Positions 14 through 48,699 of a stretch of 64,000 bases of DNA are shown one piece after another (the stretch's first letter is position 1; every line of letters begins with the position of its first letter). The DNA lies in IMG/VR virus record IMGVR_UViG_3300038603_000024, positions 1 to 64,000 of that record; one strand, given 5' to 3'. A program made the translations under genes and the position numbers. Below the pieces are notes generated by a model. It was not told where the DNA came from. It saw nothing but the letters and a program-made list of their open reading frames with translations, and did no database searches. Source of the DNA: a virus. Lineage: Duplodnaviria; Heunggongvirae; Uroviricota; Caudoviricetes.

Positions 14-89
14 TGGACCACCCTCCGGGACTTGAACCCAGATCTGAAGCTTAGGAGGCAACTGCTCTATCCGGTTGAGCTAAGGGTGG
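14..89 (-). tRNA. tRNA-Arg(CCU)-like gene. It has a 7-bp acceptor stem, a 4-bp D-stem, the anticodon loop CUCCUAA, a 5-bp T-stem with a TTCAAGT loop, and 3' TCCA. Two U-U mismatches in the anticodon stem may mean a divergent or att-site-derived copy.
   Basis: I folded the reverse complement of positions 14-89 by hand into a cloverleaf. The anticodon CCT sits in a loop identical to the canonical tRNA-Arg(CCU) loop. The genomic CCA tail is at 14-16 on the complement. Confidence 0.55.
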
Positions 90-14322: not shown

Positions 14323-14709
14323 CTACTTTCTCCATCGTTTGACCGTTAAGGCTCCTGCGTCTGCGATAGTAATGGCTGGCACAAGAATCATTGCCATTTC
14401 GTTTATATGTGCCGGAACATTGTGAATTGTCAGTGACAGTCCTAGTAGCGGGTTGATAATGCTGACGATGTAGATAGCGGCCCACCAGATCCCCCACGGA
14501 ACCACGATGAGCCACCTGCCAAGGCTTGTGGCTGACCACCTGTCCTGCGCTTCGATCCTCGCAATGTCCTGTGCAGCCTGAAGCGCGGCAATGCGTTGCT
14601 CTGCCTCTAGCTTGGCTTCAGTCGTCTCCGCATTCAGCTTGGCTTGGTACGCCTCTTTAAGCTGTCGGGCGATGGGTCCGCCTAGGAAACTGAGGATCGC
14701 TTGCAGCAT
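14323..14709 (-). CDS. Lysis-associated membrane protein (N-terminal coiled coil, C-terminal TM segments).
   Basis: Last gene of the lysis cassette, ATGA-coupled to the holin-like gene. Confidence 0.4.
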   Translation of the reverse strand: MLQAILSFLGGPIARQLKEAYQAKLNAETTEAKLEAEQRIAALQAAQDIARIEAQDRWSATSLGRWLIVVPWGIWWAAIYIVSIINPLLGLSLTIHNVPAHINEMAMILVPAITIADAGALTVKRWRK

Positions 14710-14921
14710 TACTCTTTCTTCTCTTTAGCGGTCCAGCTTGCCCAGAAGCCCAGCACAGCCATCAGGAGGCCGACTACAGCGGGCCAGTTCTCAAGGGCGA
14801 TTAGCGACATCAGCAGGGCTGCAGGATCGTCCACAGCGGCTAGGATCGCCAGCATAGGGCCAAGGGCGGTCAGGAGGTGACGCAGCGCGCCTTGGACTTT
14901 AGGGTTGCGAAGTTTGCTCAT
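14709..14921 (-). CDS. Holin-like protein (70 aa, two TM domains).
   Basis: Its size and topology fit a class II holin. It overlaps the endolysin stop. Confidence 0.5.
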   Translation of the reverse strand: MSKLRNPKVQGALRHLLTALGPMLAILAAVDDPAALLMSLIALENWPAVVGLLMAVLGFWASWTAKEKKE

Positions 14922-15682
14922 TTGCTTAGCGCCTCTACAATTGCTTTGACCAGTTTAACCAGCCAGTGGTCATCGGGGTATGTTGTGTTGGCTAGGGCCT
15001 TGTCTGGCTCAGTCTCTGGACCGGGCGACGGTTTGTGCAGCGTGTCAATCGCCTGCCCGCGCTTCCACTCGGTGTCCTTGATCTTGGACCACTTGTTGTA
15101 AGCCTGCCTTAGCTTCACGTCGTACTTGTTCTTCTTGTATCCAGGGCCATTGTATCCCCGTGCAAAACCTGCCCAGTCGTGGCGGCGCAACTCATCATCC
15201 AGTCCAGCCGCAATGATGAACTTAACCATTGCCTCTAGCTGACTACCTTCGCTCTCAGTGAACGCCAGAACCATTTCCTCTGCCCGGTTATATTCGCACA
15301 TCGCAAAGTTCTCGCCCAAGATCTGACCTAGACCCCAAGAGGCAGACCGCAGAGCCGCTTCCTTGTTGATCTTCATAGCTCGCTCCAGGCGGGGGTAACT
15401 GTCTTTCGGGTAGTTCCGTTTCCAATTCCGGTAAGCAAGCCCCTGTGCGACCGCCTTGTCCCGCTCTGCGCCGCTAAGGTTGCGGTAGAAGACGTGTGGC
15501 TCAAACAGCATGGCTGGCCTGCCCTGACTGTCATATCCACTCCCGCGCGCCTCTACATCAAGCACAGCGTGGATTTCATCTTCCCCCACGCCAATGGTTG
15601 CGCCCAATCGGGGGAGGTCTGTATCTTTCAGCCTGATAGCTGTGCCCTTAAAGTTCATCGGTGGTCTACCTTCAATGTGCAA
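14918..15682 (-). CDS. Endolysin, N-acetylmuramidase (DUF3380 family).
   Basis: EARGSGYDSQGRPAMLFEPHVF matches the DUF3380 muramidase signature. Confidence 0.7.
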   Translation of the reverse strand: MHIEGRPPMNFKGTAIRLKDTDLPRLGATIGVGEDEIHAVLDVEARGSGYDSQGRPAMLFEPHVFYRNLSGAERDKAVAQGLAYRNWKRNYPKDSYPRLERAMKINKEAALRSASWGLGQILGENFAMCEYNRAEEMVLAFTESEGSQLEAMVKFIIAAGLDDELRRHDWAGFARGYNGPGYKKNKYDVKLRQAYNKWSKIKDTEWKRGQAIDTLHKPSPGPETEPDKALANTTYPDDHWLVKLVKAIVEALSK

Positions 15683-15788
15683 CTAGGAGCGCTGCAGTTT
15701 TTCCCGTTGTCTTGCGGCGCGAATGATGGGAGCACCCCGTGTGCTACTGCCGCGATTAAGGCTGATGTCATAAGCATTTTCACGGTGT

Positions 15789-16031
15789 TCATTTCCCAAA
15801 ACCTGCCCACTTTGAAATTTTCTCTAGAAGGGCGCTCACTTCGGTTGACCGAAAGAGAATAAAGAAGGCTATAATCGCAGCCCATGCCTTCAGGTTGGAT
15901 ACAAAAGCATGGATTGGCTTTACCAAAGGCCACATGAGATTCACGCGCTGCATATTGCGGTGGTACTCTTGCCATTCTGCCTCACTTTCTGGAGGCGTCT
16001 TCCGGTAGCTATTGAGGTCATTGTCAGCCAT
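15789..16031 (-). CDS. Small single-TM protein (80 aa).
   Basis: ORF in the track, overlapping the upstream gene end. Confidence 0.35.
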   Translation of the reverse strand: MADNDLNSYRKTPPESEAEWQEYHRNMQRVNLMWPLVKPIHAFVSNLKAWAAIIAFFILFRSTEVSALLEKISKWAGFGK

Positions 16032-16578
16032 TTGACATTACCTCCCGCGCATACTCCGCGCCACTCGTGTTGCTAGTGTTACGATTTTCTTTGTTAACCA
16101 CAGATCCACCAGCACGGAAAGCACTATTGCCCACCATGCCACGCCCTCTAGCGCTAAGTTCAGAAAGTCTGCCAATGAATTCATGCCGCAGCGACCACCC
16201 AATGAGAAGCATCGCGGCTATCAGCAGAATGTCGCCTGACATATATGGCAACGAACCAACCACACGCGGTGCATCAGTAACCCGTGCCCACAAGCCAGTT
16301 AATCCGTTCAAGGCCAAAAACGACCGAATAAACAAAATGTGTCGCCAGAACTGACTCTGGGTGGCGGTCACTCGCGGGATTGCGGATGCCGCCACTATCC
16401 AAGTAGCAGAAATTAGAAGGATGAGTAAGTCGCTGGATATGGGGAATGCGTCGTAAAACCTGATGGATACTAGCCCAGCCAGGATGATGAGTGCTGATCG
16501 AACAAAGTGGCCGTTCCCCAGCCAATAAGACAGAGCAGCCATCGAAACAGCAAGGCCCATGAGGAACGGCCAAACCAT
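16024..16578 (-). CDS. Multi-pass membrane protein (184 aa), possibly lysis-related.
   Basis: 4-5 hydrophobic helices, located upstream of the endolysin. Confidence 0.45.
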   Translation of the reverse strand: MVWPFLMGLAVSMAALSYWLGNGHFVRSALIILAGLVSIRFYDAFPISSDLLILLISATWIVAASAIPRVTATQSQFWRHILFIRSFLALNGLTGLWARVTDAPRVVGSLPYMSGDILLIAAMLLIGWSLRHEFIGRLSELSARGRGMVGNSAFRAGGSVVNKENRNTSNTSGAEYAREVMSNG

Positions 16579-16808
16579 TACTTGCCGCCCCCAGAGCGGG
16601 TGGAGATCTGACCGTCATCGCCCCACACTTTCAGAGGACCAGCCACTGATTCAGCAGCAGCCAGATGGCTAAGGACCATACTAGCCGTGTCACGCGCTTC
16701 ACATTGGTGTGTTGCGCAGCAGTGGTCACGGATTTGAATAACCGTGTTGATGACGTCCCGCAGTTTCTTCTGTGCGTCATCCATTTTGGCTTGGGTGATT
16801 TTGCTCAT
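16578..16808 (-). CDS. Hypothetical protein (76 aa).
   Basis: ORF in the track, coupled to the downstream gene. Confidence 0.35.
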   Translation of the reverse strand: MSKITQAKMDDAQKKLRDVINTVIQIRDHCCATHQCEARDTASMVLSHLAAAESVAGPLKVWGDDGQISTRSGGGK

Positions 16809-16913
16809 CCGAATTCCCTAAGTTCAAAGGTGGTAGTTAACAAGTTAAACAGTACCACAAAAGAAAAGCCCGATCCAGAGACCGGGCGATTCAATAGACA
16901 ATGCATAGGGGTT

Positions 16914-17126
16914 TTAGCCCTTATTGCGCATCATCATTTCGGAGGGTTGGGTGTACATGCCGCCCTTGTTGGATTCAATGGGGCCGGTTTTCATGCCCAT
17001 AGGGGTGCTGTAGCGGGAGCCGTCAGGTGCGCCAGTCATCATGCCGCCCATTTTCATGTCACCGCCTTTGTTACCCATGTCGGACTTCATGCCGCCCATC
17101 ATCTTGTCGCCGTAGTGCTTTGGCAT
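16914..17126 (-). CDS. Met/Gly-rich small protein (70 aa, about 21% Met) with repeated MGGM, MGNKGG and MGMK units.
   Basis: I took the start at MPKHYG, which has an AAAGGA ribosome-binding site. Composition counted by hand. Confidence 0.45.
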   Translation of the reverse strand: MPKHYGDKMMGGMKSDMGNKGGDMKMGGMMTGAPDGSRYSTPMGMKTGPIESNKGGMYTQPSEMMMRNKG

Positions 17127-17166
17127 CTTGTTGATCCTTTCGTGTGTTGTACAACAATACGAACAT

Positions 17167-17180
17167 CTTAACATGTTAAG
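17167..17180. promoter_or_regulatory. Palindromic motif CTTAACATGTTAAG, copy 1, upstream of the Met-rich and basic-protein genes.
   Basis: Exact 12-bp palindrome TTAACATGTTAA. One of at least five near-identical copies, all 5' of leftward virion transcription units. Confidence 0.45.
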
Positions 17181-17200
17181 CTTTAGGAATCTAGTCCGTG

Positions 17201-17353
17201 CTACTTACGCTTCTTAGCAGACTTAGCCGCCTGCTTAAACGCCTTGGCTGTCGGGTATCCCTTTTCGCCCGGTCGTTTGGGACGCTTACCTGCTTTGCGC
17301 CGAGAATGTATATTTTCGTAAAGCCCCGGCTTCTTCTTCGTGCTTTTAGCCAT
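17201..17353 (-). CDS. Lysine-rich basic miniprotein A (50 aa, MAKSTKKKPGLYENIHSRRKAGKRPKRPGEKGYP...KSAKKRK).
   Basis: Hand-translated, below the track cutoff. It is co-directional with three other basic miniproteins. Confidence 0.45.
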   Translation of the reverse strand: MAKSTKKKPGLYENIHSRRKAGKRPKRPGEKGYPTAKAFKQAAKSAKKRK

Positions 17354-17373
17354 CTGCTAAGTCCTTGATTTTG

Positions 17374-17685
17374 CTACCATTTCGTGACCGAAGACCAGTG
17401 CGCCGCGCTCATTTTGCCCTTTGCAATGTTCTTTGCATGGCGCGCTTTGAAGGAAGCCCGTCGCTTTTTAGCTGCTTCGCTCTCGCCTTTCTTGGGTGGA
17501 GACCCTTTGACGTTTTGTTGGCCGAAGCGGATCGTCTTGATTTTTGACCCTTCTTTTGCTACGACAACGTGCGACTTGGTGGGGTGGTTGGGGGTGCGCT
17601 TCGGTTTGTTCACGCCCTTAACCCCCGCCCGTTTAACTGCGGCCTTGGCTTTGGCAGCGACGGATTGCTTGCCCTTCTTAGCCAT
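17374..17685 (-). CDS. Lysine-rich basic miniprotein B (103 aa).
   Basis: ORF in the track with AKKAK-type repeats. Its start overlaps the stop of miniprotein C (TAATG). Confidence 0.5.
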   Translation of the reverse strand: MAKKGKQSVAAKAKAAVKRAGVKGVNKPKRTPNHPTKSHVVVAKEGSKIKTIRFGQQNVKGSPPKKGESEAAKKRRASFKARHAKNIAKGKMSAAHWSSVTKW

Positions 17686-17810
17686 TATTTTTTCTTCTTC
17701 ATCTTTGGCTTGGCTTTGATCGGGCCTTTGCCTTTGACTGCCGGGGTCTTGCGCTTGACCGGCTTGGTGGTGGATTTGCGGTACTGAACGCGCGGGGTCT
17801 GGGTTGCCAT
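17685..17810 (-). CDS. Lysine-rich basic miniprotein C (41 aa, MATQTPRVQYRKSTTKPVKRKTPAVKGKGPIKAKPKMKKKK).
   Basis: Hand-translated. It fills exactly the gap between B and D. Confidence 0.4.
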   Translation of the reverse strand: MATQTPRVQYRKSTTKPVKRKTPAVKGKGPIKAKPKMKKKK

Positions 17811-17811
17811 G

Positions 17812-17985
17812 TTACTTCTTCCTTCTCTTGCGCTTTGCGCCTGCCTCGCTTAGTGCGATGGCCTTGGCCTGCTTTGCGCTTGTGACCTTTCGGCCTGAAC
17901 TGGATTTAAGGGTGCCGCTTTTGTACTCGCGCAGCACCTTGCTGACTTTAGCAGACTTGGCGGCTTTTGTCCTTGGCTTGGGCAT
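17812..17985 (-). CDS. Lysine-rich basic miniprotein D (57 aa, MPKPRTKAAKSAKVSK...AKRKRRKK).
   Basis: ORF in the track. I took the internal start, which has an AAAGGTGA ribosome-binding site. Confidence 0.45.
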   Translation of the reverse strand: MPKPRTKAAKSAKVSKVLREYKSGTLKSSSGRKVTSAKQAKAIALSEAGAKRKRRKK

Positions 17986-18035
17986 TATTTCACCTTTCTG
18001 GCGTTGGGGGCGCATTGGCACCATTTGTATTTAAC

Positions 18036-18893
18036 TCATATGTATGACTTTATTTTAACTCTATAGTTCAACAGGGTTGCACTTGATGTGAAACCTCCAT
18101 TTGTAGACGAACTGAATACATCTCCAACCTTTACGTCAAACAAGTATCGCTCGTTACTTCCTTGAATGAAGTTCCCTAATTCTTGCTTCAGCGCGTGGTT
18201 CTTGGTCGTACCATTTATTAGCACCCCGTTTAGAGTGTCTTGGCAGCTAACATTGCTATACGTCCCATCTGTATTTTGCGGGTCTACCCTGAATTGCGTT
18301 GTTACCTCAACTTGACCATTAAAATTGAACGTCAAGTCTCCGGACGACTGCGTAATAAGCCCAGTGAAGTCTGTGCTAGTTATTGAAAGGTTTATATCTG
18401 TTGAGTCTGTGTTTACGGATGAAGTTAAGTCTGCAGATGTAATATACTCAACGCGGCTGCGAACAGACCACGCCGCAACGGTTTGGGAGTTTACGACATC
18501 CTTGTATACGGCGAAGGTGATAGACTTATTCGGCTTGATCCTGATAGTAGATAGCCCCTGAAAAAATGAGCCGCCGCCGGATATTGATACGACAATATCA
18601 TTATCTGAGTTGCCGCTTGATGACAGGAAATCAGACAGGTTAGCGACCCTGACCTCTTTAACCACACCGTTCTCTGGCACATCAGATGGGTCTGGCAGAG
18701 TCAGTGAGAAATCGCCGGTCCCCGTCCCAGTGTCTATTGCAAGCTCTCTCGGCAAGCTGCTTCCGGAGAGAGCAGTATTGGTCCCGGTATTTATATACTG
18801 GAGATCGTGGTATCCAGACGATATAAGCTTCCCGTTTCCATCTATCTTAAAGTGGTTTTCGTGGACTCTATCGTCGTGCAAGTGGGTAGGCAT
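18036..18893 (-). CDS. Tail or fiber-associated structural protein (285 aa, Ser/Thr/Gly-rich).
   Basis: Composition and position at the distal end of the tail gene block. Confidence 0.4.
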   Translation of the reverse strand: MPTHLHDDRVHENHFKIDGNGKLISSGYHDLQYINTGTNTALSGSSLPRELAIDTGTGTGDFSLTLPDPSDVPENGVVKEVRVANLSDFLSSSGNSDNDIVVSISGGGSFFQGLSTIRIKPNKSITFAVYKDVVNSQTVAAWSVRSRVEYITSADLTSSVNTDSTDINLSITSTDFTGLITQSSGDLTFNFNGQVEVTTQFRVDPQNTDGTYSNVSCQDTLNGVLINGTTKNHALKQELGNFIQGSNERYLFDVKVGDVFSSSTNGGFTSSATLLNYRVKIKSYI

Positions 18894-21800
18894 TATGTCA
18901 CCTGTGTTGTTATAAGGGTTCCGTCAGTGCCAACGCTGAGACGCCAGCGTGTATTGTCTGAGGCAACTAGAACAAGCTCTTCGCCCAAGTTTACCGAATC
19001 GCCTTGGCTGTTTTCTGCCCTCAAAGCCACGTCAAAGGCCAGCACGGTCTCATGCGTGTAGGTGGTGCTAAACAGACCAAACTGCGGCAGGGTCGCGTGG
19101 TCTTCTAAGTTTTGCACCACGCTTGGGATTGGCTCAAAGTCTTCATAGTTGAAGAACCTCGCATTCTCATCCGCAACGGAGATATGACCGCCCAGCCCCG
19201 CGCCAAAGTAGGTTTCATATGTCCGGTTGGTGTCGATCTCCGCCCGGTCGCCAGAGATGAACAAGTTGCCATTGCTCCCCGGCTTGAAAGCGAAGACCTG
19301 CCATCCGTCAACATTGGTTCCCTCAATCTCCACCTGCCGGGTTGTTCCTGTGGTTGCGGGAACTGTGCGGGTTTCGGTGTAGCTCAGAATAACCTGAATG
19401 TCGTTGATGGTAGCCACCCCCCCGTTCACTCGCTCTGTGACGCTTACGCGGATCTCATGCTGCCCGTCTCCATTACGGTTCGGGTAGTATCGCGCCTCAA
19501 CAAACGCCTGCTCACTGCCGTCATTAAGGGTGAAGTTTGCGAAGGTCTCAACCGGTCCACCCACTCCAGTAAGCGTTGCCTGCCCTGCGCCGAACAGGTT
19601 CCCGTTGGCGTGGCCGCGATAGTCAATCGTCACCGTTGTTGATGCCGTCGGAATGTTACGGGTGAAGAACAGCTCATCCGCTTCTGGGACAGGAATGCCA
19701 TTCTGGAAAGTCAGCGTCGGGATCGTCTGCCAAATACCAGGGCCAGAGACTTGAGTCGCAGGCGCAGGATAGATGGTGTCAGTGATGGTGCTTGCTGGTT
19801 GTCCCGGAACTCGAACATTGACCGAGTAAGAGCCATTGACATAGCTGATCAGGTCTCGCCCAGTGGTGCCATCAAATGCTGTGACATAGCTCGCTTGGTT
19901 GGCGGGTTGTCCCGGCGGGATGTACAACAGCTTGCGCCGGACTTGATCTCCTGAAAGCTCAGACAGTGGCCGCGAGTTCTTTAAGCCGCCGCTTCCCGCG
20001 TTTTCATTCGGCTCATAGAACACTGATTGCGTTGTGCTGGTGGATCCGGAAATCTGGTTGTTATAGGTGGTCGGGTTGACTGTTGGGGTGCTTTCCTCAG
20101 TGACGCTGGTGTTGTTGTCCAGAACATCAATAACGGCATCTGGCAAGCTCAGCGCGGCGTGTTCCAGCTCTGCGTCAATCCGGTCAAGCGCCTCCTGATG
20201 GTTTGCAAGCTCATTGGTCCATGCACCCACCTGTTCAACCGTGGTGCGCTCCACCTCAAACACATGGCCAGAAGTGAGGCCCGTCAGCAGGTAGACGAAG
20301 TAGGTAACGCCGCCCTCTGTGAAGCTCTCGATCACGTCAACACCAAGCTGGCCCTGCATCAACGGAGTGACCGTATCAGCCGTGACGTTCTTCAAGACGT
20401 ACAGGTGCGGCTGAGCAGTTGCAACGAACATTCCGGTGTTGTTGTTTGTGAACTGCGGGTTGTTCGCCGGAACCTGAGTAAAGTCGCTAAGCTGGGTCGG
20501 GTAAGCCCCGGTGCCGTCATAAGTCGCGAACCGCGCGCTTGGGTCAGGCTCGGAGTGAGTGACGCTGATGATCGGCTCCAAGCGGTCCTCAATCTCAGCA
20601 TATGTCACGCCTTGATCGGGGATGGCTCGGTTTAGCTTCTCTTGCACAGATGCAGAGAGGCGCTCCTCTGGCAGGTTTTGCACGTTCTGCGTGACGTCAA
20701 CGGTGCTGGGGTCAAGCTGGAAGTGCTGCTGGACCTCAGTCAACCACACCTCAATCGTCGCTAGGAACGGGTAGTTGATCGATTGGGCGCGCTGATAATG
20801 GCGATAGGTGCTGTTTGTGAACGTCGCATCGTCAACAAACGTGAAGTCATTGGCAAGGTTCCAACGCTCTACAATGGCGCCGTCAGTATCCCGCAGAATG
20901 ACGTCAATCGTGCTTTCCGGGTGGCCGGTGATGAAGTTCGGCGAAACGCCAACGGTCATGTAGCTGTTGAACAGGTTATGACCAAGTTGAAAGCGCAGTT
21001 GTGCGTCTCTGTTTTCACGCCCGCCGACATAGCGGTAATTATCGCCTGCGCGTGGGTTGTTTGGATCGGTCGATGGTGTGATGAATGGGGCGGTCGTAAG
21101 TGGGTTCTCAGACAGCCATACAACGCCCTCAGAACCAAGTTGAGAAATCAGGCCCGCATCAACCCGGTTGTCGATCTCTGTGATTTCTTCATGGAAGTTG
21201 GAGGCCGCGCGGCTGGTGCGCTCAAAGCCCGTCCGCTCCCAAACAAACCAGTTGTCGCCGTCCGTCCAGCTCGTGAATGCATCGGCATCCCAGACCACGT
21301 AGTCGCCATCATTGATAACGCGGTCACTCACGCCAGCGTCAAGCAGGCCCTGCCGCAGGGTTCCATCGTTCGGGTTGGACCCGGCAACGCGGAACGCATA
21401 GCCTTTCAGTACCTCCCCGGCACCCGGCAGAAGCGATCCGTCCGCGTTATTCCAAGTGCGAGTTTGCAGAACCACCTCGCCAAAGGTGGCAACCGGATCT
21501 GTTGCCTGCTGGACAGAGATCCGCTCAATAGGTTGGATAGACCCACCAATGCGCTCAACCCTATAGGTTACAGACATGCCCTGCCCAAGCGTGGTGGGGA
21601 ACGCCCCCTCAGCGAAACCGACACTCACATTTGGCGCGGTGATTGTCAGTCGGTTGCGGGTGATGAACGTGCTGCTACCGCCGTTGTACTCAATCGTGCG
21701 AGTAAGAACCTCAGCAAGTCCACGGGCCGCAAGATCATCAAACGCCAGCGCCAGCTCTGTTGGGTTAGGGAACTCAAATGTGTAACGCCCATTTGGTTGT

Positions 21801-24583: not shown

Positions 24584-27259
24584 TTAGCCCCTGTCGTTTG
24601 TCTTCATCCCGACCACCATAGCGGCGACGTGAACCGGGTAAGGTGCCTGCGCCTGAATGCAGACGCGAGAGTCTGTGCGCCAGTCTCCGTTGAATTGCTG
24701 CATATCAACATCGTACTCTGACAAAACCGCGCCATCAGGAATGATCTGCCCGTCAGCGCCGAACCTATTCAGGCCGGTTAGATTGTTAGCGTCCCTGCCA
24801 ATGCGAACCCCATCAGGTGCCGTATCCACCATAAACAGGCCAAGGTGATCAACCTTCTTATACTGGTTCAGCGGAGTGCCAAGCGCTGCCCCGTATGCCA
24901 GTTTGGTGGACTTCCAGTTGCCGGTATAAGGTAGTCCAACTGTGACCTCGCTATATGGCGTGGTGTTGGGGATTGCCCCGCCTGATACAGTTGCCATATT
25001 GCTTTGATCGTGGATAGCCTGTCCGTCAGCCCAGACAATGACCTGTTGGCCTTCAAGGTGGTCCAGCCCGTCAATCGTGGCGCTAGGAGTGTCGTTGCTG
25101 ATGTGCACAAAGCTGTCAGCCATCCGGTTCAGTGTGCCGCCGTTTGCGTTTGTGCTTCTGGCTAGGCGCTGGAACTCATACACTGTGTCATTGTTGAACG
25201 TGCGAGCAACGGACAGGTAGACTTCATCCTCAATAGTGGATGGCAGGACTTCCACGTCCTCAATAACCCCGTTGGTAGTCACGCGAGACCACGCTACGAC
25301 ATTCTCTGTCGGCTCATATGTCAGAACCCGTGCGGTGCCATCATTGAGGACAAACCAGATACGGGTATCGGGCTGTCGCTGAACCGCGATAGACCTAATC
25401 CCTGGCTCGCAAACGCGGGTGTGTAGCTCTGTCAGATCTCTAGACGCATAGTCAACCACGCCGCTTTCTAGGGCTAGTTCAAAGACACGGGAGCCGGAAC
25501 GCTGGACAAATACCGCGTTCTTGTCGATCTCAACAGGTGCGATATTGGCGCAGCCGCGAGTAGATGCTTTACGAGGCACGAATGCGTTAGCGGTCAGAGG
25601 CTCATCAAACGAACTGGCTCGGATAGAGATTTCCGAAATGTCCGTTCCGACAACAAGGCGCTGTAGGGATTGAAGCCAGACGATACCGCGCGCAGTCTCA
25701 GCGTTGACAGTCCTAACCACTGGCCCGGAATCCCCGACCTGCGTGTCATCAAAGCTAAAGAACCTATCACTGATAGAGCCAAAAACAGTATCACCGCGAC
25801 CCCACCAGATCCTCCCATCATGAAATGCAACAGTGTTAGGCCATCCAAAACGAGCAGACCACTCCCCCCTATCCCACTGAGTAGTTGGGTTTGTGCTGCC
25901 GAAGAACTGCAAAACCTCCATAGTGGCAGAGGTTGGAGACAAAACGCGAAGAATGCGGCAAACCCCAGTTGTAGACCCGCCAGCATATCGCAACTCAACT
26001 GTTGCTGTCCCCGCCGTGTAGGCAGACACGTTAAGCCTGAAGAAAACAATCTGGTTGTCTAGGTTGTTGGTAATGCTCGCAGTTTCCGTGCCAGTGAATG
26101 TGCGCTGCGTGGTCCAGCTCCCCGGCTCAGCGATGGAACTTTCCAAATCAATGGTTCCGTTCCAGTCTTGCGACGTGTTTACGACAACGGTGAAAGTTCT
26201 GGACGTTGACCCTACACCAGTAACCCTAATGTTTTCAGTAGTTTGATTCGCACCTGAAAATGTGGATGAGACATTTTGCTCATTGTGAATAAGGCGAAGC
26301 AAAGACCCAATGTCAGAGTTGTCAAACAGTGGCCTTGATGCAGTCAGTGTGCCGTTGCCATCCGTAACTGAAGGCTGGATTGTGGTTGTTGTTGGATCTT
26401 CCACCCGGAATGGACCGTCATCAACCTGATACCTAACAACAGACCAGGAGGTATCGCCCCTCCGTTCAATCTGCCGCTGCTGAAGCCCGTCAATCCCAAG
26501 GAAGAGAATATCCCTGCTTTGGTCGTGGCTAATCCCCCTGAGATTTTCAGAGGTCCACGGCTGAGAGATAGAGAGAACACCTGCTGGCGAAACTTCGCAG
26601 GACGATAGAACAACAGTCCTGTTTTCAGGTGTTAGTAGGTCAATCCAAAAGCTGGAGGCCCCTGGTACAAATGCAATGCTGTGCTGTCCGGGTCTCAAAA
26701 CCTGACTGCTGATAAGATCGGTCCCGCCCGCTGTAGTGCCTACGTTCAGAGTTACGAGGCCACGGTTTACGACAATATCAAGCCCATGCTCTGTCTGTTG
26801 ATCTCCTACCGAAACGGAGACCTGCTGCCGTGCTACAGCCTCGCTTGCAGGTGCGCCCTCAAGGACAAGATTCCCAGCGTCAACTCCCGCAGTTGCCGTG
26901 CCAGTGCTTTGATTCGACCAGCCAGTAAATGAGTTGAAATCCCCATTCTGAACCTGTGTCGCAACAGACTCCCTGCGGACAAGCCGCCCGTTCTGCATAA
27001 CGCGCAGTTGTCCATCGCTGAGCGCGAGCATATACCGCGTGTCACTATCCACAACAAATGGAATCATAACGGTATTGGCAAGAGAGTCGTCCAGCCTTTC
27101 AAGCCCCGGCCTAAAACTCATTTGCCCAATAACTTCCGGGAACAAGTTTTCCATCCGCTCCGCTGCGAATTGAAGCCTTTGCAGATCAAATCTGGCTAGG
27201 GCTGACGGTCCGACCTCGCCGCCGTTAAGGCTGTATACTGGAGCATTTTGTCTCGGCAT
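24584..27259 (-). CDS. Large tail protein (891 aa).
   Basis: Size and context. No motif recognised. Confidence 0.4.
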   Translation of the reverse strand: MPRQNAPVYSLNGGEVGPSALARFDLQRLQFAAERMENLFPEVIGQMSFRPGLERLDDSLANTVMIPFVVDSDTRYMLALSDGQLRVMQNGRLVRRESVATQVQNGDFNSFTGWSNQSTGTATAGVDAGNLVLEGAPASEAVARQQVSVSVGDQQTEHGLDIVVNRGLVTLNVGTTAGGTDLISSQVLRPGQHSIAFVPGASSFWIDLLTPENRTVVLSSCEVSPAGVLSISQPWTSENLRGISHDQSRDILFLGIDGLQQRQIERRGDTSWSVVRYQVDDGPFRVEDPTTTTIQPSVTDGNGTLTASRPLFDNSDIGSLLRLIHNEQNVSSTFSGANQTTENIRVTGVGSTSRTFTVVVNTSQDWNGTIDLESSIAEPGSWTTQRTFTGTETASITNNLDNQIVFFRLNVSAYTAGTATVELRYAGGSTTGVCRILRVLSPTSATMEVLQFFGSTNPTTQWDRGEWSARFGWPNTVAFHDGRIWWGRGDTVFGSISDRFFSFDDTQVGDSGPVVRTVNAETARGIVWLQSLQRLVVGTDISEISIRASSFDEPLTANAFVPRKASTRGCANIAPVEIDKNAVFVQRSGSRVFELALESGVVDYASRDLTELHTRVCEPGIRSIAVQRQPDTRIWFVLNDGTARVLTYEPTENVVAWSRVTTNGVIEDVEVLPSTIEDEVYLSVARTFNNDTVYEFQRLARSTNANGGTLNRMADSFVHISNDTPSATIDGLDHLEGQQVIVWADGQAIHDQSNMATVSGGAIPNTTPYSEVTVGLPYTGNWKSTKLAYGAALGTPLNQYKKVDHLGLFMVDTAPDGVRIGRDANNLTGLNRFGADGQIIPDGAVLSEYDVDMQQFNGDWRTDSRVCIQAQAPYPVHVAAMVVGMKTNDRG

Positions 27260-32924: not shown

Positions 32925-32938
32925 CTTAACATGTTTAG
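32925..32938. promoter_or_regulatory. Palindromic motif copy 2 (CTTAACATGTTTAG), about 35 nt upstream of the tail-spike start.
   Basis: Matches the consensus TTAACATGTTAAG with one substitution. Confidence 0.4.
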
Positions 32939-32951
32939 CAATTGAATGCTA

Positions 32952-35456
32952 TCACCTAAACCCGCCGCCGGTCGCAACAATGCTAGATGGTGGGAGCCAG
33001 TACTCCTGATTATTTTCACGGCGAACCCGTTTTTCTGCGCGGCGCAGGTAGCCTGGATTAATTGTCTCTTGAAGTTGGAACCAGACAAGATAATCCATCG
33101 CTGACTTGGCATAGAACAGGTTGGCAAATGGCGTGTTGCTTTTGACAAGCCGTAGAAGATCACCGCTAATGTCGTCCTCTGCCCCGGTCACAATTCCTCG
33201 CGCGCGCTGCAAAAGGTCAATGGCCTCTGTTGCTGTGCCGATTGTTGGGCCAGCCAGAGTGTCCAGTGTGCCGCCACCGAAACGGTTAGCCTCACCGAAC
33301 AAGAAGTCACCGTAGATCCCAAGTCCGCCACCCTGCAACAGAGCAGCCACGAATGTCTCTGCGCTCATCTCGCGCGTCTCTCGCCCCTTTAGGATCTCTT
33401 TCGTTTGCATGACGAAATAGCCGAGAACGGTTGTGCCTACAATAGCATTGGCTAGGCCAGCATTGGCTCCGATTCCCTTGCCAAGTTGTTCACGAAACGT
33501 CCGCGACCCTGTTCCGTAAACCTGACGTCCGACAACTTTTGTAAGGCCAGTGATGCCAAAGCTTTTGAATTGCGTCGCAAACCTGATTGCTTCTCCAGCC
33601 ACAGTGCCGGGCCTGTAGCCCTGACGCAGGATTGCCCTTTCCCGCGCGCCCGCAGATGGAACCGCAAAGTCTGCCTCAGCCGACATAAGCGTAAAGAAGT
33701 TGTCAGATGCAGCATCTAGAACACGTTGATTTACCCCAGACCCTTCTAGCTGCCGGATATCACCGGGCATAATGTAGGAACGACCGTCCTCAGCCTCTCG
33801 TGTAGATTGGCGAATTACGTTCCACTGCGCCTCATCAATGCCGTAGATTCGCAGGAGGCGCTGCATGTCCTCTGGCAATTCATTAACCGTCCTGCCTGCG
33901 TTCATCGCGAAGTCACGGCTAATCATAAACGTAACGCCGCGTTTGTTTGCGTCGGACCAAGGCCCCAGAAGGTTCATCTTGAAGAAAAACGCCATCGCCT
34001 TCGAGGTGGCTCCTGGAAGATCATCAGACGCATTGGCGCGACTCATAAAATCGCCAAGCTGCCCCTCAAGACCTGCTCCAAGAAGATCTGCAAACTCGCG
34101 CTTTTCTCCCCCTTGAAGGCCCTCAATAGATGCTGTAAACGCATCCTGCCAAGCATCACCGAGACTGCGACCCTGATAAATTCGGTTAGTCGCCGTGAAT
34201 GCAATATCTGATGTGGCGGAGATTACAGCGCCACCAAGTTTTGCCATCGTCTGGATAGCGCGAATTGCAGAAGAAACGCGAGCGACCGTCGTGCCAGCGC
34301 CAAGATTGATATCCCCTGTCACTTCGTCCATTCGGTTTTGAATGTATCGGGGAACGCCCTTGCCAGCCTCAAGCTCGAACTTTTCCAGCTTTGCTTCATT
34401 GCCACGGTATTTCTCACGCGCAATTTTGACAACCCTTTCAAGCATTGCCTGCGGGTTAGTGCCGAAGTTTGAAATAATCGCAGTAGACCTAGCGTTTCGG
34501 TTCAAGTCTTGATGGAACGCCTCACGCAGAGAGCCGGTCCCAAACTGGCGGTCATAGTCAAACCAGTCGTCAACGGTCTTAAACTCCAGAACCCGCGCCG
34601 CTGCATCTTTCTTGGCTAGGTTGCCCGGACCCTTAAACGCGCGCTCAATATCAGACACGTCTTTGTCTAGGCGAATGCCAGTCTTTAGAGAGATGTAAGT
34701 CTCTGACAGGAATTTCTCAATTTGCTCAGGGCGAACACCCATCGCTTCATAATCAAGCTTTTGACGGACTGCATCTTTCCATTCTTTCTCCCCCGCAACA
34801 GCCATTTTTGCAGGATCGTGGCTTTGACGAACAACCCTGCCGGACTTTTCACGAATATGCCCGCCTTCTCGGTTGAGCCGCCGCACAGATGTGACCTGAT
34901 ACTTCTGCATGATCTTGGCAATTTCCATAGCCTCCCGGCTGACGTTAACGCCGCGCGGTTCTCGCCTATTTAGATCACCCAAAGCGTTAGCAACCTCCCG
35001 CTCGAAGTCGCCACTCATTTTGTTGTATTGCGTGTGCAGATTGGCTTTCTTCAGGTCATGAATAAGACCACCAGCATAAGAGTTCATCAAGCCATTGGTG
35101 ATTGCATCAACTGACCTCTGCGCCCCCTCAAACGGAGCATTGACGCCACTGATAGCAGCTTCCAAGCCAAGAGCAGGATTGTCCGTCATCTGGTCTGCGC
35201 GATTCATCAGGTCCAGAAGCTTATTTTCAATGACGATGTTTTTCAGCCGATTGCGGCGTTCAATCAGCGCGGCCTCTTCAGCTTGGCTGGCAATGATCTC
35301 CCCCTCTCGCAACAGGGCGGACTCAACGCTTTCCAGATTATCACTGGATTGGGCACGTTGCTTCCTGTTGTTGAGGTCTGCAAAGATATCCTCAATCTCA
35401 TCATCATCTAGCCGACCATTGTTAACTTGGTCAGCAATATTCAAACAATCAGCCAT
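32952..35456 (-). CDS. Large internal virion / ejection-type protein (834 aa).
   Basis: Gene order between the capsid genes and the tail spike. No enzymatic motif found. Confidence 0.4.
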   Translation of the reverse strand: MADCLNIADQVNNGRLDDDEIEDIFADLNNRKQRAQSSDNLESVESALLREGEIIASQAEEAALIERRNRLKNIVIENKLLDLMNRADQMTDNPALGLEAAISGVNAPFEGAQRSVDAITNGLMNSYAGGLIHDLKKANLHTQYNKMSGDFEREVANALGDLNRREPRGVNVSREAMEIAKIMQKYQVTSVRRLNREGGHIREKSGRVVRQSHDPAKMAVAGEKEWKDAVRQKLDYEAMGVRPEQIEKFLSETYISLKTGIRLDKDVSDIERAFKGPGNLAKKDAAARVLEFKTVDDWFDYDRQFGTGSLREAFHQDLNRNARSTAIISNFGTNPQAMLERVVKIAREKYRGNEAKLEKFELEAGKGVPRYIQNRMDEVTGDINLGAGTTVARVSSAIRAIQTMAKLGGAVISATSDIAFTATNRIYQGRSLGDAWQDAFTASIEGLQGGEKREFADLLGAGLEGQLGDFMSRANASDDLPGATSKAMAFFFKMNLLGPWSDANKRGVTFMISRDFAMNAGRTVNELPEDMQRLLRIYGIDEAQWNVIRQSTREAEDGRSYIMPGDIRQLEGSGVNQRVLDAASDNFFTLMSAEADFAVPSAGARERAILRQGYRPGTVAGEAIRFATQFKSFGITGLTKVVGRQVYGTGSRTFREQLGKGIGANAGLANAIVGTTVLGYFVMQTKEILKGRETREMSAETFVAALLQGGGLGIYGDFLFGEANRFGGGTLDTLAGPTIGTATEAIDLLQRARGIVTGAEDDISGDLLRLVKSNTPFANLFYAKSAMDYLVWFQLQETINPGYLRRAEKRVRRENNQEYWLPPSSIVATGGGFR

Positions 35457-42008: not shown

Positions 42009-42397
42009 TGTTTTTCTCCGTGTTTTTCTGCTCGCCAGATCCAGACCTGCCGCCCTGCTTCTTCCCTGTCCGTTGGCTTGAACCCAAGACGGGACAGGAA
42101 CTCACTTGCACGTGGAATGCGTTTGTCGCAGCTTGTCACCACTTCATCACATCCGCGAGATTTCATCTCATTGATTAGCCGAAAGGCGTATTTGTAAACA
42201 GAGGGTTTACGTGCCCATTTGCGCAGATCCAGAAACGCGACAACTTCACCAGCCTCATTTGCATAAACGCCGCCCATGCCAACAATCTGATTGCCAATCT
42301 TTGCAACCAGCCCCTCCCAAGGGTTTTGCAGGCGAGCGCCGTAGAACTGGAACATGTCCCGATCTGTTGCTTCTGATACAGTGAAGTGCTGCCCCAT
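42005..42397 (-). CDS. Hypothetical virion-module protein (130 aa), possibly with an acetyltransferase-like fold.
   Basis: ORF in the track. Weak GNAT-like impression only. Confidence 0.3.
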   Translation of the reverse strand: MGQHFTVSEATDRDMFQFYGARLQNPWEGLVAKIGNQIVGMGGVYANEAGEVVAFLDLRKWARKPSVYKYAFRLINEMKSRGCDEVVTSCDKRIPRASEFLSRLGFKPTDREEAGRQVWIWRAEKHGEKQ

Positions 42398-43074
42398 TAG
42401 ATCCGGCCCTGACGTGTGCTAATAGATCCGCCAAGAGCTGTCCGTTGACGATTCTGACGGACGCCAAACCCACGCTGTGCCCGGTTCCAACTGCCGCTGC
42501 GAACCCGTGCCTCTTTCTCATCACGCGCATCACGGCTCTTAGCCTTGGCTAGGCGCATCCGGGCTTCTCTCTCAATCTTATCCCTGTCAGTGGATGACTG
42601 GTTGAGCCGCTGGACAATATCCAAAGCAAGCGCTGCGCTGATGTATCGGGCGAACAGGTGCGACCATGCTGCAATCCCCGCCTCTTCCGCAAAGTCAGTG
42701 GAGATGTATTCGAGATAGAGCGTATCAGTGTCAGAGTGCAGAAGACCTGCGCTGTCCTTAAACAGATCCTCAAACTCATAGACATAAGCGTCCCGGATAT
42801 CAGGATACTCAGACGCCGCAATAGTAGCGATCCAGTCGTCAGGCTTTTGGAATGCGAACTGATACCCAATGGCGGGTGTTGCTGCAGGGTCAGCGTTGAT
42901 TTGAACGGTCTTGATTGCAAAGTTCCACGGCGTCAATGAAAGCGCATCCAACACCACATCGGTGAAGGATTCATTCAAAGCCTGTACTTGCGGAATGTTG
43001 TCAGTGAGGGCTGCAATTGGCTGTGATCCAATGAGCCTCAAAGCGTCGTTATATACTGAAAGGCGAGTTGCCAT
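42397..43074 (-). CDS. Putative head-tail adaptor or neck protein (225 aa).
   Basis: Position downstream of the capsid gene. Confidence 0.35.
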   Translation of the reverse strand: MATRLSVYNDALRLIGSQPIAALTDNIPQVQALNESFTDVVLDALSLTPWNFAIKTVQINADPAATPAIGYQFAFQKPDDWIATIAASEYPDIRDAYVYEFEDLFKDSAGLLHSDTDTLYLEYISTDFAEEAGIAAWSHLFARYISAALALDIVQRLNQSSTDRDKIEREARMRLAKAKSRDARDEKEARVRSGSWNRAQRGFGVRQNRQRTALGGSISTRQGRI

Positions 43075-43118: not shown

Positions 43119-43132
43119 GTTAACATGTTAAG
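43119..43132. promoter_or_regulatory. Palindromic motif copy 3 (GTTAACATGTTAAG), about 50 nt upstream of the 43074 start.
   Basis: Exact match to the core palindrome. Confidence 0.45.
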
Positions 43133-44057: not shown

Positions 44058-44906
44058 TTACGCGATGGCCTGAGTGTCATCGTGGATGATCTGCAGGACG
44101 CCGGGCTGCTGAAGCAGACGTGCACCCTGGAAGATCGTGTGGCGGGCATAGGAGTAGTCCTGCTCACCATCATAACCAACGTTGACGTGGATCATGTCGT
44201 TGTTGACCGCGTGACCAACTGCACCGCGAGCAAACGCATAACACTGAGCGTTGTTGCCGCCGATGTTAGGCAGGCCAGTGTGCGGCATGTGAGTTGCGCC
44301 AGCCCAGCGAACGGGGCGTTCTTTACCAGCAACACCACCAGCCAGAGGCTTTTCATCCACGTAGTCCGCGCTAGTGAACTCATCAAAGGTCTTGATGCGC
44401 GCCCAAGCTTTCGGTGTCCACAGGATGGTAATGTCGTCCGAAGAGTAGACGTCCTGCTCGTTCAGCTCAGAGATAATGTCAACCACGTTACCGAAGGTCA
44501 GGGTGATTGCGTTACCGTTGTTGAACTGGTTGGTTGCGGTCGAGAGAGCGTCATCAATGATGATCTGGTCAATCTCACGCGCGGCGGTCAGTGCGCCAGC
44601 CTGTTGCATCGCCATACGCAGATCGGACTGCGAGGTGAAGATGTTGAAGCTGGACTGGGTTTCCAGAGAGTGGAATTCTTCCAGAGGCACGTTGACCTGC
44701 GAGTCGGTACGCTGGCGGGACGGGATAAGGCCGTTAACGCCACGACGGACCATGCGAGGTGCAGAGCCTTGAATCGGGAAGACAGCGGTGTCGCCTTTAA
44801 AGACGAGTTCGCGGGTTACGGCGTCTTTCAGGTAGGTCTCGCCGCGCTGGAACTGCAGAACCCATTCGTCTCGGTACTGCTGTTCTACGATCTGATAACC
44901 GGACAT
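44058..44906 (-). CDS. Major capsid protein (282 aa).
   Basis: It follows the scaffolding gene, has a long 5' UTR with the conserved motif, and is of a size typical for a major capsid protein. Confidence 0.55.
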   Translation of the reverse strand: MSGYQIVEQQYRDEWVLQFQRGETYLKDAVTRELVFKGDTAVFPIQGSAPRMVRRGVNGLIPSRQRTDSQVNVPLEEFHSLETQSSFNIFTSQSDLRMAMQQAGALTAAREIDQIIIDDALSTATNQFNNGNAITLTFGNVVDIISELNEQDVYSSDDITILWTPKAWARIKTFDEFTSADYVDEKPLAGGVAGKERPVRWAGATHMPHTGLPNIGGNNAQCYAFARGAVGHAVNNDMIHVNVGYDGEQDYSYARHTIFQGARLLQQPGVLQIIHDDTQAIA

Positions 44907-45040
44907 AGGTTATCCTCCATAGTGTTTGATATAACGATGTGGGGTTGGTCGCAGTTTCTCTTGGGTGGCCGCAGATGCGGGGCAAGACAAAGCGAATGCG
45001 CGGGGCCGAAAAGACGGGGTAGCCGCGTTATGCAAATAAG

Positions 45041-45056
45041 ATAACATGTTAAGTAT
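45041..45056. promoter_or_regulatory. Palindromic motif copy 4 (ATAACATGTTAAGTATTAC), about 140 nt upstream of the capsid gene.
   Basis: Shares the extended 15-mer CATGTTAAGTATTAC with copy 5. Confidence 0.45.
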
Positions 45057-46764: not shown

Positions 46765-48456
46765 TTACTGGATTCCACCGCCCCCGGTGACTTGCTGGAG
46801 CTGCTGAGCCACGCCAACAGCTTCACTTGCGACTTGCGCGCCTTGCTGGAGCTGCTGAAGGGCCTGCTGCTGTTGTTGCAGTTGCGCTTCGTCCTGCTTG
46901 ATCTTGTCCGCTTCCTCTTTGGTGAACAGCCATTCGGGGTTAGCTGTAACCTTGAAGGTGTCACGGAACATCCGGTCAACGTTCACATTAGCAACCACGC
47001 CAGGGTCAAGCTGTGCCATCGCCCCGATAATCGCCATAGACTCCTCAAACTTGCCAACAACCTGCTGTTCCCGTGCATCCCTCAGAGGGTTCTGGAACTC
47101 AAAGCTGGTATCCATATCCTGCAAGATTTCAGGGAAGCTCTCAGCGGTGCCGTATGCGCCAAGTTTGATCAGGCGATTGACGACAAGATCCAGCTCAGGC
47201 GCGATGACCTCGTTTTCCAGAGGCTCAAAGATTGGCAGGGTGCTACGGATGAACTCCTGCTGAAGAATCCGAACCTCTGTCGCTGTCCTGTTGCGGGTGT
47301 CAGGAAGGTTGATCTTGTCCAGATAGAAGCTGGATGTCAGATCTGCCACCTTGCGATCCATGAGCGCTTGCCCGACGCCGGGGTTCTTGCCCAGATCCAG
47401 AGGCACAAGAGGCGCGCCAAGTCGCTCATCGTACTGCGCGTCAACGTAAGTGACCCCGCCAGCAGTGACATCAATCGGGCCTTGGATAGCCTCAGACGTT
47501 GCAATCAGCGGCGGCTCAGTTGCCTTTTCCGTTGCCTCAATAATCGAGACAGCCATACGCTGAATGAGACGCGCGTCAGGCAGGGCAGTCATAGCAGCAG
47601 GGGAGTAGCCATAGGACCACCCCTGAACAGTGCGCCAGCGGGAAACGATATAGGGGAATACGGTCTCAGGCTCTTCTTTCAGAACCGTGCCATCTTCAAA
47701 CAGATAGACCGATGCGAACTCTGTGCCTTTCGGGAAGCTCTTGCGCATAACCGGCTCATACTGGTCAACAGGCAAGGCCACGTGGCGAACATCAAACTTG
47801 TCGTTACGGTCTCCCCGCTTCAGCGCGCCCTTAACCGCACTTGGCAGGTTTCTCTCTCCGAATTTCTTCTCAATACCACCCGCTGTCATCTTCATCTTGC
47901 GGTGCAGGTGGTCAACAATACCCCAGTCATTCTCCATCCAAGCGCAGTCTTTCAGGTGCCACGTCTTGAAGAAAATGCCGTTGTTGTCTTTGTTATTCGT
48001 TACGGATTTGACAGAGCAGCCGAATACCGCAAAGTCAATATCAGCCTCTGAGTTGGCCCGCGTGTATTTAGCGTCTGCCGCATAGATAGCCGCGCGGGTA
48101 ATGCGGGTCATCGCGTCAAGTTTACGCCGTGCCTCAGTGTCGTTCTTCACCTCTTCGTCGGGAACGGTGACAGCAAACCAATCCTGGTCAGCAGGGCGCA
48201 ACATAGTGTTAAACAGGTTGGCTAGGTCTCGTGCGACCCTGACAGTATCAGCGTCTGACAGGTGGTCTGCAAATTCCTCGCCAAGTGTGATTTCGTTGGT
48301 GAAGTCTGCCTTCTCTGGAGCAAACCAGTATGCCAGTTCTTGATTCAACTGGTCGAAGTTTTGCTTGTCGGAAAACAGCTTGTCGCCGAGAGCGATCAAT
48401 TCACTCCCGACCTTGCACGGATAGCCGCGTGTATGGTTCTCGTTATTGTCAGCCAT
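46765..48456 (-). CDS. Portal (head-to-tail connector) protein (563 aa).
   Basis: Size and gene order upstream of the scaffold and capsid genes, with a Gln-rich C-terminal tail. No diagnostic motif; assigned by synteny. Confidence 0.55.
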   Translation of the reverse strand: MADNNENHTRGYPCKVGSELIALGDKLFSDKQNFDQLNQELAYWFAPEKADFTNEITLGEEFADHLSDADTVRVARDLANLFNTMLRPADQDWFAVTVPDEEVKNDTEARRKLDAMTRITRAAIYAADAKYTRANSEADIDFAVFGCSVKSVTNNKDNNGIFFKTWHLKDCAWMENDWGIVDHLHRKMKMTAGGIEKKFGERNLPSAVKGALKRGDRNDKFDVRHVALPVDQYEPVMRKSFPKGTEFASVYLFEDGTVLKEEPETVFPYIVSRWRTVQGWSYGYSPAAMTALPDARLIQRMAVSIIEATEKATEPPLIATSEAIQGPIDVTAGGVTYVDAQYDERLGAPLVPLDLGKNPGVGQALMDRKVADLTSSFYLDKINLPDTRNRTATEVRILQQEFIRSTLPIFEPLENEVIAPELDLVVNRLIKLGAYGTAESFPEILQDMDTSFEFQNPLRDAREQQVVGKFEESMAIIGAMAQLDPGVVANVNVDRMFRDTFKVTANPEWLFTKEEADKIKQDEAQLQQQQQALQQLQQGAQVASEAVGVAQQLQQVTGGGGIQ

Positions 48457-48661: not shown

Positions 48662-48679
48662 AAGATTTCCCGAATTTAC

Positions 48680-48699
48680 TTGTCATGTTAAGTATTACC
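48680..48699. promoter_or_regulatory. Palindromic motif copy 5 (TTGTCATGTTAAGTATTACC), immediately downstream of a terminator.
   Basis: The terminator-then-motif arrangement suggests a promoter for the portal and capsid operon. Confidence 0.45.

Follow-up and report, generated by a model that had tools for sequence, protein, structure and literature searches.

What do four adjacent genes for small, strongly basic proteins do in the late region of a tailed-phage genome? This question is raised by a cluster of five minus-strand genes, here named A to E, in a 64,000-nucleotide (nt) stretch of Caudoviricetes DNA (positions 1 to 64,000 of the IMG/VR virus record IMGVR_UViG_3300038603_000024), which we refer to as the window. 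An earlier, sequence-only reading had described the cluster as an operon of four histone-H1-like miniproteins plus a methionine- and glycine-rich protein, and its leading guess was that the basic proteins are co-packaged with the phage DNA. We find that the cluster is a new instance of known, uncharacterised families together with two orphan genes, and not a new kind of system. Co-packaged DNA-binding proteins are still the best reading of A to D, resting on gene context, and the fifth gene looks like a transcription unit of its own.

A run of four basic late genes

All five open reading frames (ORFs) were present on the minus strand where they had been placed. Gene A (17812..17985) encodes 57 amino acids (aa), B (17685..17810) 41 aa, C (17374..17685) 103 aa, D (17201..17353) 50 aa, and E (16914..17126) 70 aa. 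The isoelectric point (pI), predicted to exceed 11 for the basic proteins, was computed as 11.8 for A, B, and C and 11.3 for D, and that of E was 9.6. Lysine plus arginine (K+R) make up 28–39% of the residues in A to D (39% in B), with net charges of +16 to +26, a grand average of hydropathicity of -0.95 to -1.66, and 8–17% hydrophobic residues (ILVFWMC). The four highest K+R contents among the 81 non-overlapping ORFs of the window are exactly those of the neighbours A to D. Gene E consists of 21.4% methionine and 21.4% glycine, compared to a highest methionine content of just 7.9% among the same 81 ORFs. Because the four K+R-richest ORFs are adjacent and the methionine content of E is an outlier, chance is no explanation for this arrangement.

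The genes are closely packed, and the junctions between A, B, and C are the only tight ones: B starts one base past the A stop, and the B stop and C start share the sequence TAATG. C and D lie 20 nt apart, with AAGGA preceding D, and a palindromic motif sits inside the 74-nt spacer between D and E. Most likely, judging from the sequence, gene A begins at the internal ATG at 17985, which is preceded by AAGGTGA. A 70-aa form starting at 18024 is unlikely, as its upstream extension contains a TAA in one relative (L085), and in another (L179) the gene begins directly with MPKPRT and overlaps the stop codon of the gene ahead of it. The expectation that routine annotation would miss the short genes held in part: one public gene call includes all five, and two others lack A, or both A and B.

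These two relatives, L085 (a Logan assembly, ~93–95% identical) and L179 (slightly more diverged), provided roughly 5–10% divergence overall against which to read the coding frames. The same five frames and their junctions are kept in both, in answer to the concern that frames might be lost in close relatives, and substitutions cluster at sites that are synonymous in the proposed frames but not in the others. Compared to L085, we counted 7 synonymous and 3 non-synonymous changes in A, 28 and 3 in C, 18 and 4 in D, and 11 and 7 in E, where 18 nucleotide changes, including an AGC to TCG switch between serine codons, lead to 3 residue changes. Compared to L179, E shows 4 synonymous and 0 non-synonymous changes, and B shows 9 and 2 in its own frame, with 0–1 synonymous changes in other frames. 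All of A to E are under purifying selection in these two diverged relatives, and the five small ORFs are genuine late genes.

Families encoded among head and packaging genes

Three of the four basic proteins belong to families that phages encode within, or at the edge of, their head-morphogenesis and packaging modules. The clearest case is gene C, a full-length member of phrog_7595 (E = 3.9e-37; residues 11–103 on profile positions 3–96 of 96). We found homologues in 43 cultured phage records and matches in >600 IMG/VR stretches, and the family comprises at least 8000 clusters at 90% identity in a large protein collection. Among cultured phages, homologues of C occur in cobaviruses (SIO1 among them), in CRP roseophages, in one SAR116 phage and one Vibrio phage, and in the cyanophages S-CBS2, KBS-S-2A, S-H1, and MED4-184. 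The protein is 60–93% identical to thousands of others, and its core (residues ~21–103) is nearly invariant across thousands of clusters. Around C in 80 IMG/VR loci, 83% of the larger neighbours lie on the same strand, and every one of the ten neighbour clusters that recur most often consists of head, packaging, or structural genes: the large terminase (16 loci), a head-morphogenesis protein (12), two portal clusters (10 and 6), a tail fibre (10), three major head protein clusters (7, 6, and 6), a scaffold (7), and a head-tail adaptor (7). In S-H1 and MED4-184, C directly precedes the scaffold and coat genes.

An AlphaFold2 (AF2) model of C reached a predicted local distance difference test score (pLDDT) of 55, and a PDB sequence search gave no match. 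C is not a member of DUF6321 (PF19846), scoring 15.5 bits against a gathering cut-off of 28.5 (E = 0.028); hhalign aligned just 13 columns with a true DUF6321 member at a probability of 7.5%, and the two share only a 13-residue RRASFxAR motif. In the roseophage SIO1, the C homologue (59% identity) lies unannotated in the reference record at NC_002519 24065-24277 (-).

The C gene also has HNH genes as neighbours in some phages. In L085, a gene for a 131-aa HNH-type homing endonuclease (938-1333) lies between C and D, in the counterpart of window positions 17354-17373, and the insertion replaces the C stop, such that C reads on to 141 aa. The read-through tail, WTIGPIGA..., also occurs in C variants of 137–139 aa from several samples. 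A related HNH gene directly follows the C homologue of S-CBS2 (gp047; L003 3286-3735), and in S-CBS4 an HNH gene (gp017; L178 1906-2421) lies beside a DUF6496-like gene. Conserved as it is, gene C may serve as a target for homing.

Gene A matches the Pfam family DUF6496 (PF20106) at 31.7 bits, above the cut-off of 24 (E = 2e-7; profile positions 7–50 of 58). It carries the family core, E(F/Y)KxGTLxS...RKQA(I/V)AIA(L/M)SEA, in which K, E, G-T-L, S, and KQA-AIA-SEA are invariant among the aligned viral relatives. Two Vibrio phages carry a DUF6496-like gene of 51 aa whose sequence overlaps the beginning of the portal gene. The PDB sequence search gave no match to A, and literature searches for DUF6496 and DUF6321 gave no paper.

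Gene D matches phrog_16028 over its full length (E = 4.6e-11; residues 7–49 on profile positions 2–49 of 50) and contains the conserved core GLYxNI...R...PG.KG.PT.KAF, and the same segment matches inside larger PHROGs. With a close, less lysine-rich homologue from L004 as the query, we found the family in 123 cultured phage records, mainly from T7-like cyanopodoviruses, pelagiphages, and roseophages. The AF2 model of D (pLDDT 81) is a predicted helix-loop-helix, with helices at residues 11–20 and 36–48; in BFVD it matched only sequence-related segments inside larger phage proteins, and the PDB sequence search returned only noise, including a weak L15e match (E = 1.2). The D gene of HTVC168P is found between the genes for scaffold and capsid, and that of P-SCSP1u between those for capsid and tail tube. 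It adjoins a true DUF6321 gene in S-SBP1, KBS-P-1A, P-SCSP1, and HTVC168P (gp31, a true member at 94 bits), and phrog_11180 and phrog_28131 are fusions of D with DUF6321, a family with 538 records in the phage collection. In T4-like cyanomyoviruses, DUF6321 and the D-like segment appear as C-terminal or internal modules of 141–928-aa proteins, whose genes lie between those for the small terminase and for virion structural proteins; in S-RIM8 gp114 (L184 2444-4219), for example, DUF6321 forms the C-terminal 70 residues of a 591-aa protein. Several D homologues of ~50 aa (CRP-810 gp49, L091 2501-2659, and those of S-B28, 7B11-B, and WH11-B) are labelled 'ribonucleotide reductase A subunit', which looks like a propagated mis-annotation. 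This label and the unannotated SIO1 homologue of C are annotation corrections that follow from our comparison.

Gene B had no match in Pfam, PHROG, or NCBIfam (the last of these gave no family for any of the five proteins), and a tblastn search against 83 C-family loci found none either. It is conserved in L085 and L179 and is a lineage-specific fourth member of the basic run.

Pelagiphages, cyanophages, and roseophages repeatedly carry two to five basic miniprotein genes in a row. Examples include gp29-31 of the pelagiphage HTVC168P, between scaffold and capsid, four genes preceding the scaffold and coat of MED4-184, and further runs in S-H1, P-GSP1, CRP-9, and CRP-810, the last with C, D, and then another gene. 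The order of C followed by D seen in the window also occurs in CRP-810, CRP-4, and CRP-5. Of the 83 loci with C, 14 also hold an A-like gene in its vicinity and 10 a D-like gene, often immediately adjacent, and the small basic ORFs near C cluster into about ten further recurrent families. In the phage collection, nearly all carriers of C, D, and DUF6321 are cyanophages, pelagiphages, roseophages, Vibrio phages, or freshwater phages, and among phages the families of A, C, and D hardly occur outside aquatic viruses. The earlier claim that tailed phages have no such arrays as a standard module therefore fails for aquatic phages, given the at least 8000 clusters of C, the 123 cultured records of D, and the recurring runs. 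The window cluster is one more case of a recurrent pattern and not a unique system.

Possible roles of the basic proteins

From their late-module placement, positive charge, low hydrophobicity, strong constraint, and family linkage, we infer that A to D bind nucleic acid and act on the phage genome. We tentatively favour a course of events in which they would be made together with the structural proteins, would bind nucleic acid through their high positive charge, and would act on the phage genome while heads are being filled; the most probable form of this is as internal proteins, packaged with the DNA, that act as counter-ions or condense it. In that case, they would presumably enter the next host with the DNA. 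Head-module placement, charge, invariance, mutual adjacency and fusion, and the link of bacterial DUF6496 to Ku and uracil-DNA glycosylase (UDG) genes all point to a role that involves the phage DNA during head assembly.

Several observations weigh against co-packaging. Our literature search for virion proteomes and structures of phages with these families found none that covers proteins of the A to D type. A fold search with the D model found no DNA-binding fold and no counterpart in the PDB. The invariance of C extends to histidine, tryptophan, and phenylalanine positions, and such near-invariance points to a specific partner over generic charge neutralisation. The cobaviruses SIO1, P12053L, and ICBM2 carry C as the last late gene, after the lysis genes, and the families span podo-, sipho-, and myovirus-type genomes and not one capsid architecture. 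The cellular relatives of A also provide less support than their numbers imply: bacterial DUF6496 genes, which are common on chromosomal contigs, have a UDG-superfamily gene within 3 kb in 16 of 80 loci and a Ku gene in 13 of 80, but a large share of these loci belongs to Acidobacteriota that are related to one another, so the counts lack independence. The surroundings of the bacterial genes also hold hemerythrin, DUF892, DJ-1/PfpI, DUF4142, and pyrophosphatase genes, which suggests a stress or DNA-repair role.

The main rival to co-packaging is an intracellular role, in which A to D would stay out of the virion and bind nucleic acid late in infection: they might attach to RNA or ribosomes, condense the host nucleoid or push it aside, or serve as chaperones of replication and packaging substrates. 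This is possible, if well short of probable. Small, very basic proteins that by themselves lack a confident fold, as the pLDDT of C illustrates, are reminiscent of ribosomal and RNA-binding proteins. C is also 60–80% identical across phages of cyanobacteria, alphaproteobacteria, and gammaproteobacteria, which fits a universally conserved target. Moreover, DUF6496 is a cellular family in stress and DNA-repair neighbourhoods, and D-like segments occur on large proteins that do not look structural, such as the 'cytidyltransferase' of MED4-213. However, the genes sit in head and packaging modules and not in early or replication modules, and no ribosomal-protein or RNA-binding family matched at E ≤ 1, with the L15e match to D lying in the noise.

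Another alternative is that A to D are cationic lysis accessories that make the outer membrane permeable as infection ends; a cationic peptide-like lysis protein, gp28, has reportedly been found in coliphage phiKT. The cluster abuts the lysis cassette, C comes after the lysis genes in cobaviruses, CRP-9, and CRP-810, and we noticed no lipoprotein-type outer-membrane spanin, though this was not analysed in depth. Yet A to D appear to have almost no hydrophobic face: besides their small share of hydrophobic residues, their best 18-residue windows reach a mean hydrophobicity of only -0.29 to -0.62 and a hydrophobic moment of 0.34–0.59. The same families often lie between scaffold and capsid or beside the portal, far from lysis genes. 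Because of this apparent lack of a hydrophobic face and this distance, a lysis-peptide role is unlikely.

Still harder to credit is the idea that A to D are selfish or hitch-hiking genes that neighbouring homing endonucleases carry from one aquatic phage to another and that benefit the phage little. The HNH gene inserted right after C in L085, with its effect on the C-terminus and the read-through tail of other variants, the HNH genes beside the C homologue of S-CBS2 and the DUF6496-like gene of S-CBS4, and the mosaic gene order around the families are all compatible with it. But the strong purifying selection (28 synonymous against 3 non-synonymous changes in C) and nearly invariant core make a purely selfish role unlikely, and homing endonucleases typically target conserved, useful genes, so that their association argues for importance. 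Finally, that A to D are pieces of one frameshifted larger gene, or chance ORFs in a non-coding spacer, can be set aside almost completely despite the very tight junctions (a one-base gap and a one-base overlap) and the short, low-complexity B, as the homologues of A, C, and D are free-standing 45–107-aa proteins of similar size with their own starts and stops in hundreds of phages, all five frames are kept in two relatives with substitutions synonymous in each separate frame, and an Rfam scan of the region gave no family match.

Returning to co-packaging, a broader version could be imagined, which we regard as speculative and would not call likely. Aquatic phages may share a mobile polycationic toolkit (DUF6496, phrog_7595, phrog_16028, DUF6321, and others) of capsid-loaded 'phage protamines' that take the place of polyamines and Mg2+, or add to them, and travel into the next host on the DNA. 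In bacteria, the DUF6496 proteins near Ku and UDG would then be their counterpart and coat DNA in dormant or stressed cells, and the window would hold an unusually full set, of four genes plus the separately driven E. Among uncharacterised families of small proteins in marine and freshwater phages, those of A, C, and D rank with the most widespread, and the pelagiphages, cyanophages, and roseophages that carry them are among the most abundant ocean viruses. If these proteins are indeed packaged, the view of DNA charge neutralisation and genome delivery in marine phages would change.

Gene E and its candidate regulatory signals

The operon had been described as extending from the four basic genes into E, but E has its own upstream motif and its own terminator. 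The palindrome CTTAACATGTTAAG, at 17167..17180, lies 40 nt upstream of the E start codon. The motif that the sequence-only reading pointed to is real: we found five matches in the window at ≤2 mismatches, compared to 0.15 expected. The other four copies lie 18–134 nt upstream of their genes, namely a 1373-aa fibre-like gene (copy at 32925-32938), tail tube A (43119-43132), the major head protein (45040-45053), and the portal unit (48679-48692). In L085, the sequence from CTTAACATGTTAAG through the E start codon is identical, and the preceding 20 nt differ at 7 positions. No sigma-70-like promoter was found within 14500-19000, and CTTAACATGTTAAG is a candidate promoter or regulator-binding site for late structural genes.

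On the other side of E, 27 nt past its stop, a terminator-like hairpin with the T-run TTTTCTTTTG (16858..16887, minus strand) has 8 pairs, 6 of them G-C, and is the sole hairpin with these counts in a scan of 14500-19000. Since E is preceded by its own CTTAACATGTTAAG and followed by its own terminator, it looks like a separate unit in the regulatory class of the main structural genes and not like the tail of an A to D operon. A weaker copy of the palindrome, TTAACTTGTTAA, was matched by a regular expression at 16837..16848, preceding a 76-aa gene; its counterpart in L085 is TTAACATGTTAA.

As had been claimed, E is rich in methionine (~21%), with MGGM occurring twice and MGMK once, although Tandem Repeats Finder detected no tandem repeat at the DNA level. 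Its sole match, in searches of 5.8 billion word-indexed sequences and, with HMMER, 1.84 billion representatives, was a 99%-identical protein of the same lineage (P0001), and Pfam, PHROG, and NCBIfam gave none. The N-terminus, MPKHYGDKMMGG, shows no hydrophobic leader. E begins with MPKHYGDK (17103-17126), and the D-family metagenome proteins P0007, P0016, P0021, P0025, and P0027 begin with MPGHYGG, MPGHYGD, or MPGHYGS, ahead of a lysine-rich stretch. When sought in the loci compared, MP(G/K)HYG as an N-terminal motif was seen only in E and its close relatives; on sequence likeness, it may be a shared motif or a remnant of common origin of E and the D family. An antisense ORF of 168 aa (16665-17171, plus strand) that overlaps E and the 76-aa gene is spurious, since it is broken in L085, and annotation by longest ORF would prefer it over E. 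We consider E an orphan gene unrelated to A to D, which encodes a real, lineage-specific late protein that is probably strongly expressed and possibly also virion-associated.

The surrounding phage genome

The window makes up most of a tailed-phage genome of ~80 kb with genes on the minus strand, and an identical stretch lies within a 79.7-kb ENA contig. When the 8 kb surrounding the cluster were compared with cultured phages by megablast, no match was found. PHROG matches on the minus strand identified the large terminase (50059-52908), a T7-type portal (46765-48456), the major head protein (44058-44906), tail tube A (42397-43074), a virion structural protein (32952-35456), and tail tube B (24584-27259), with fibre-like proteins next down the strand. 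The terminase ORF is unusually long at 949 aa; terminase profiles match two separate stretches of it, a weak primase-like match lies near its N-terminus, and it may carry an insertion (an intein or an extra domain). A tRNA-Arg (CCT) gene lies at the window edge (14-89, minus strand).

The cluster was correctly placed between the lysis and tail modules, as A to E sit between the tail-fibre genes and the lysis cassette. Along the minus strand, genes for 1118-aa and 285-aa proteins are followed by A to E, the 76-aa gene, and the rest of the lysis-side block. The 76-aa gene (16578-16808, minus strand), which had no family match and encodes a cysteine-rich patch, DHCCATHQCE, opens this block after the terminator of E. 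Membrane proteins of 184 and 80 aa, a PF11860 muramidase (14918-15658), and two further membrane proteins, all on the minus strand, complete it.

Comparison with known systems

The closest analogies to the favoured role come from other viruses. The internal proteins IPI-III of T4, protein J of phiX174, and proteins VII and mu of adenovirus are small basic proteins packaged with viral DNA, which they are thought to neutralise or organise. By analogy, A to D may be comparable in being small, strongly basic, and encoded with late head genes, although we found no relationship to these proteins in sequence or fold. The likeness to histone H1 that had been proposed for the cluster is one of composition only. 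Similar to linker histone H1 and bacterial H1-like proteins, A to D are rich in lysine, alanine, and proline with a pI >11 (as computed above), but none had a linker-histone or histone-like match in Pfam or NCBIfam at E ≤ 1, and each of A, C, and D has a conserved core of its own that is not repetitive.

For E, the suggestion of a Cu(I)-binding or oxidant-scavenging peptide likewise came down to composition, with no family match, no homologue outside its lineage, and no hydrophobic leader. Methionine-rich Cu(I)-binding motifs occur in the periplasmic copper proteins CopA/PcoA, CusF, and CopC, and E resembles these in its 21% methionine and its clustered MxxM and MGGM-type spacings. It differs from them in having no match to a known domain, no signal peptide-like start, and no histidine or cysteine partners.

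Among the families themselves, DUF6496 homologues are single-domain proteins of about 50–70 aa, as is the product of gene A. The family is mainly cellular (Acidobacteriota, Alphaproteobacteria, and Bacteroidota), whereas gene A is a phage late gene beside other basic miniproteins. In the same way, phrog_7595, phrog_16028, and DUF6321 are all familiar from phages under the label 'unknown function', and the window differs from these earlier records in carrying four basic genes in a row, including the lineage-specific B.

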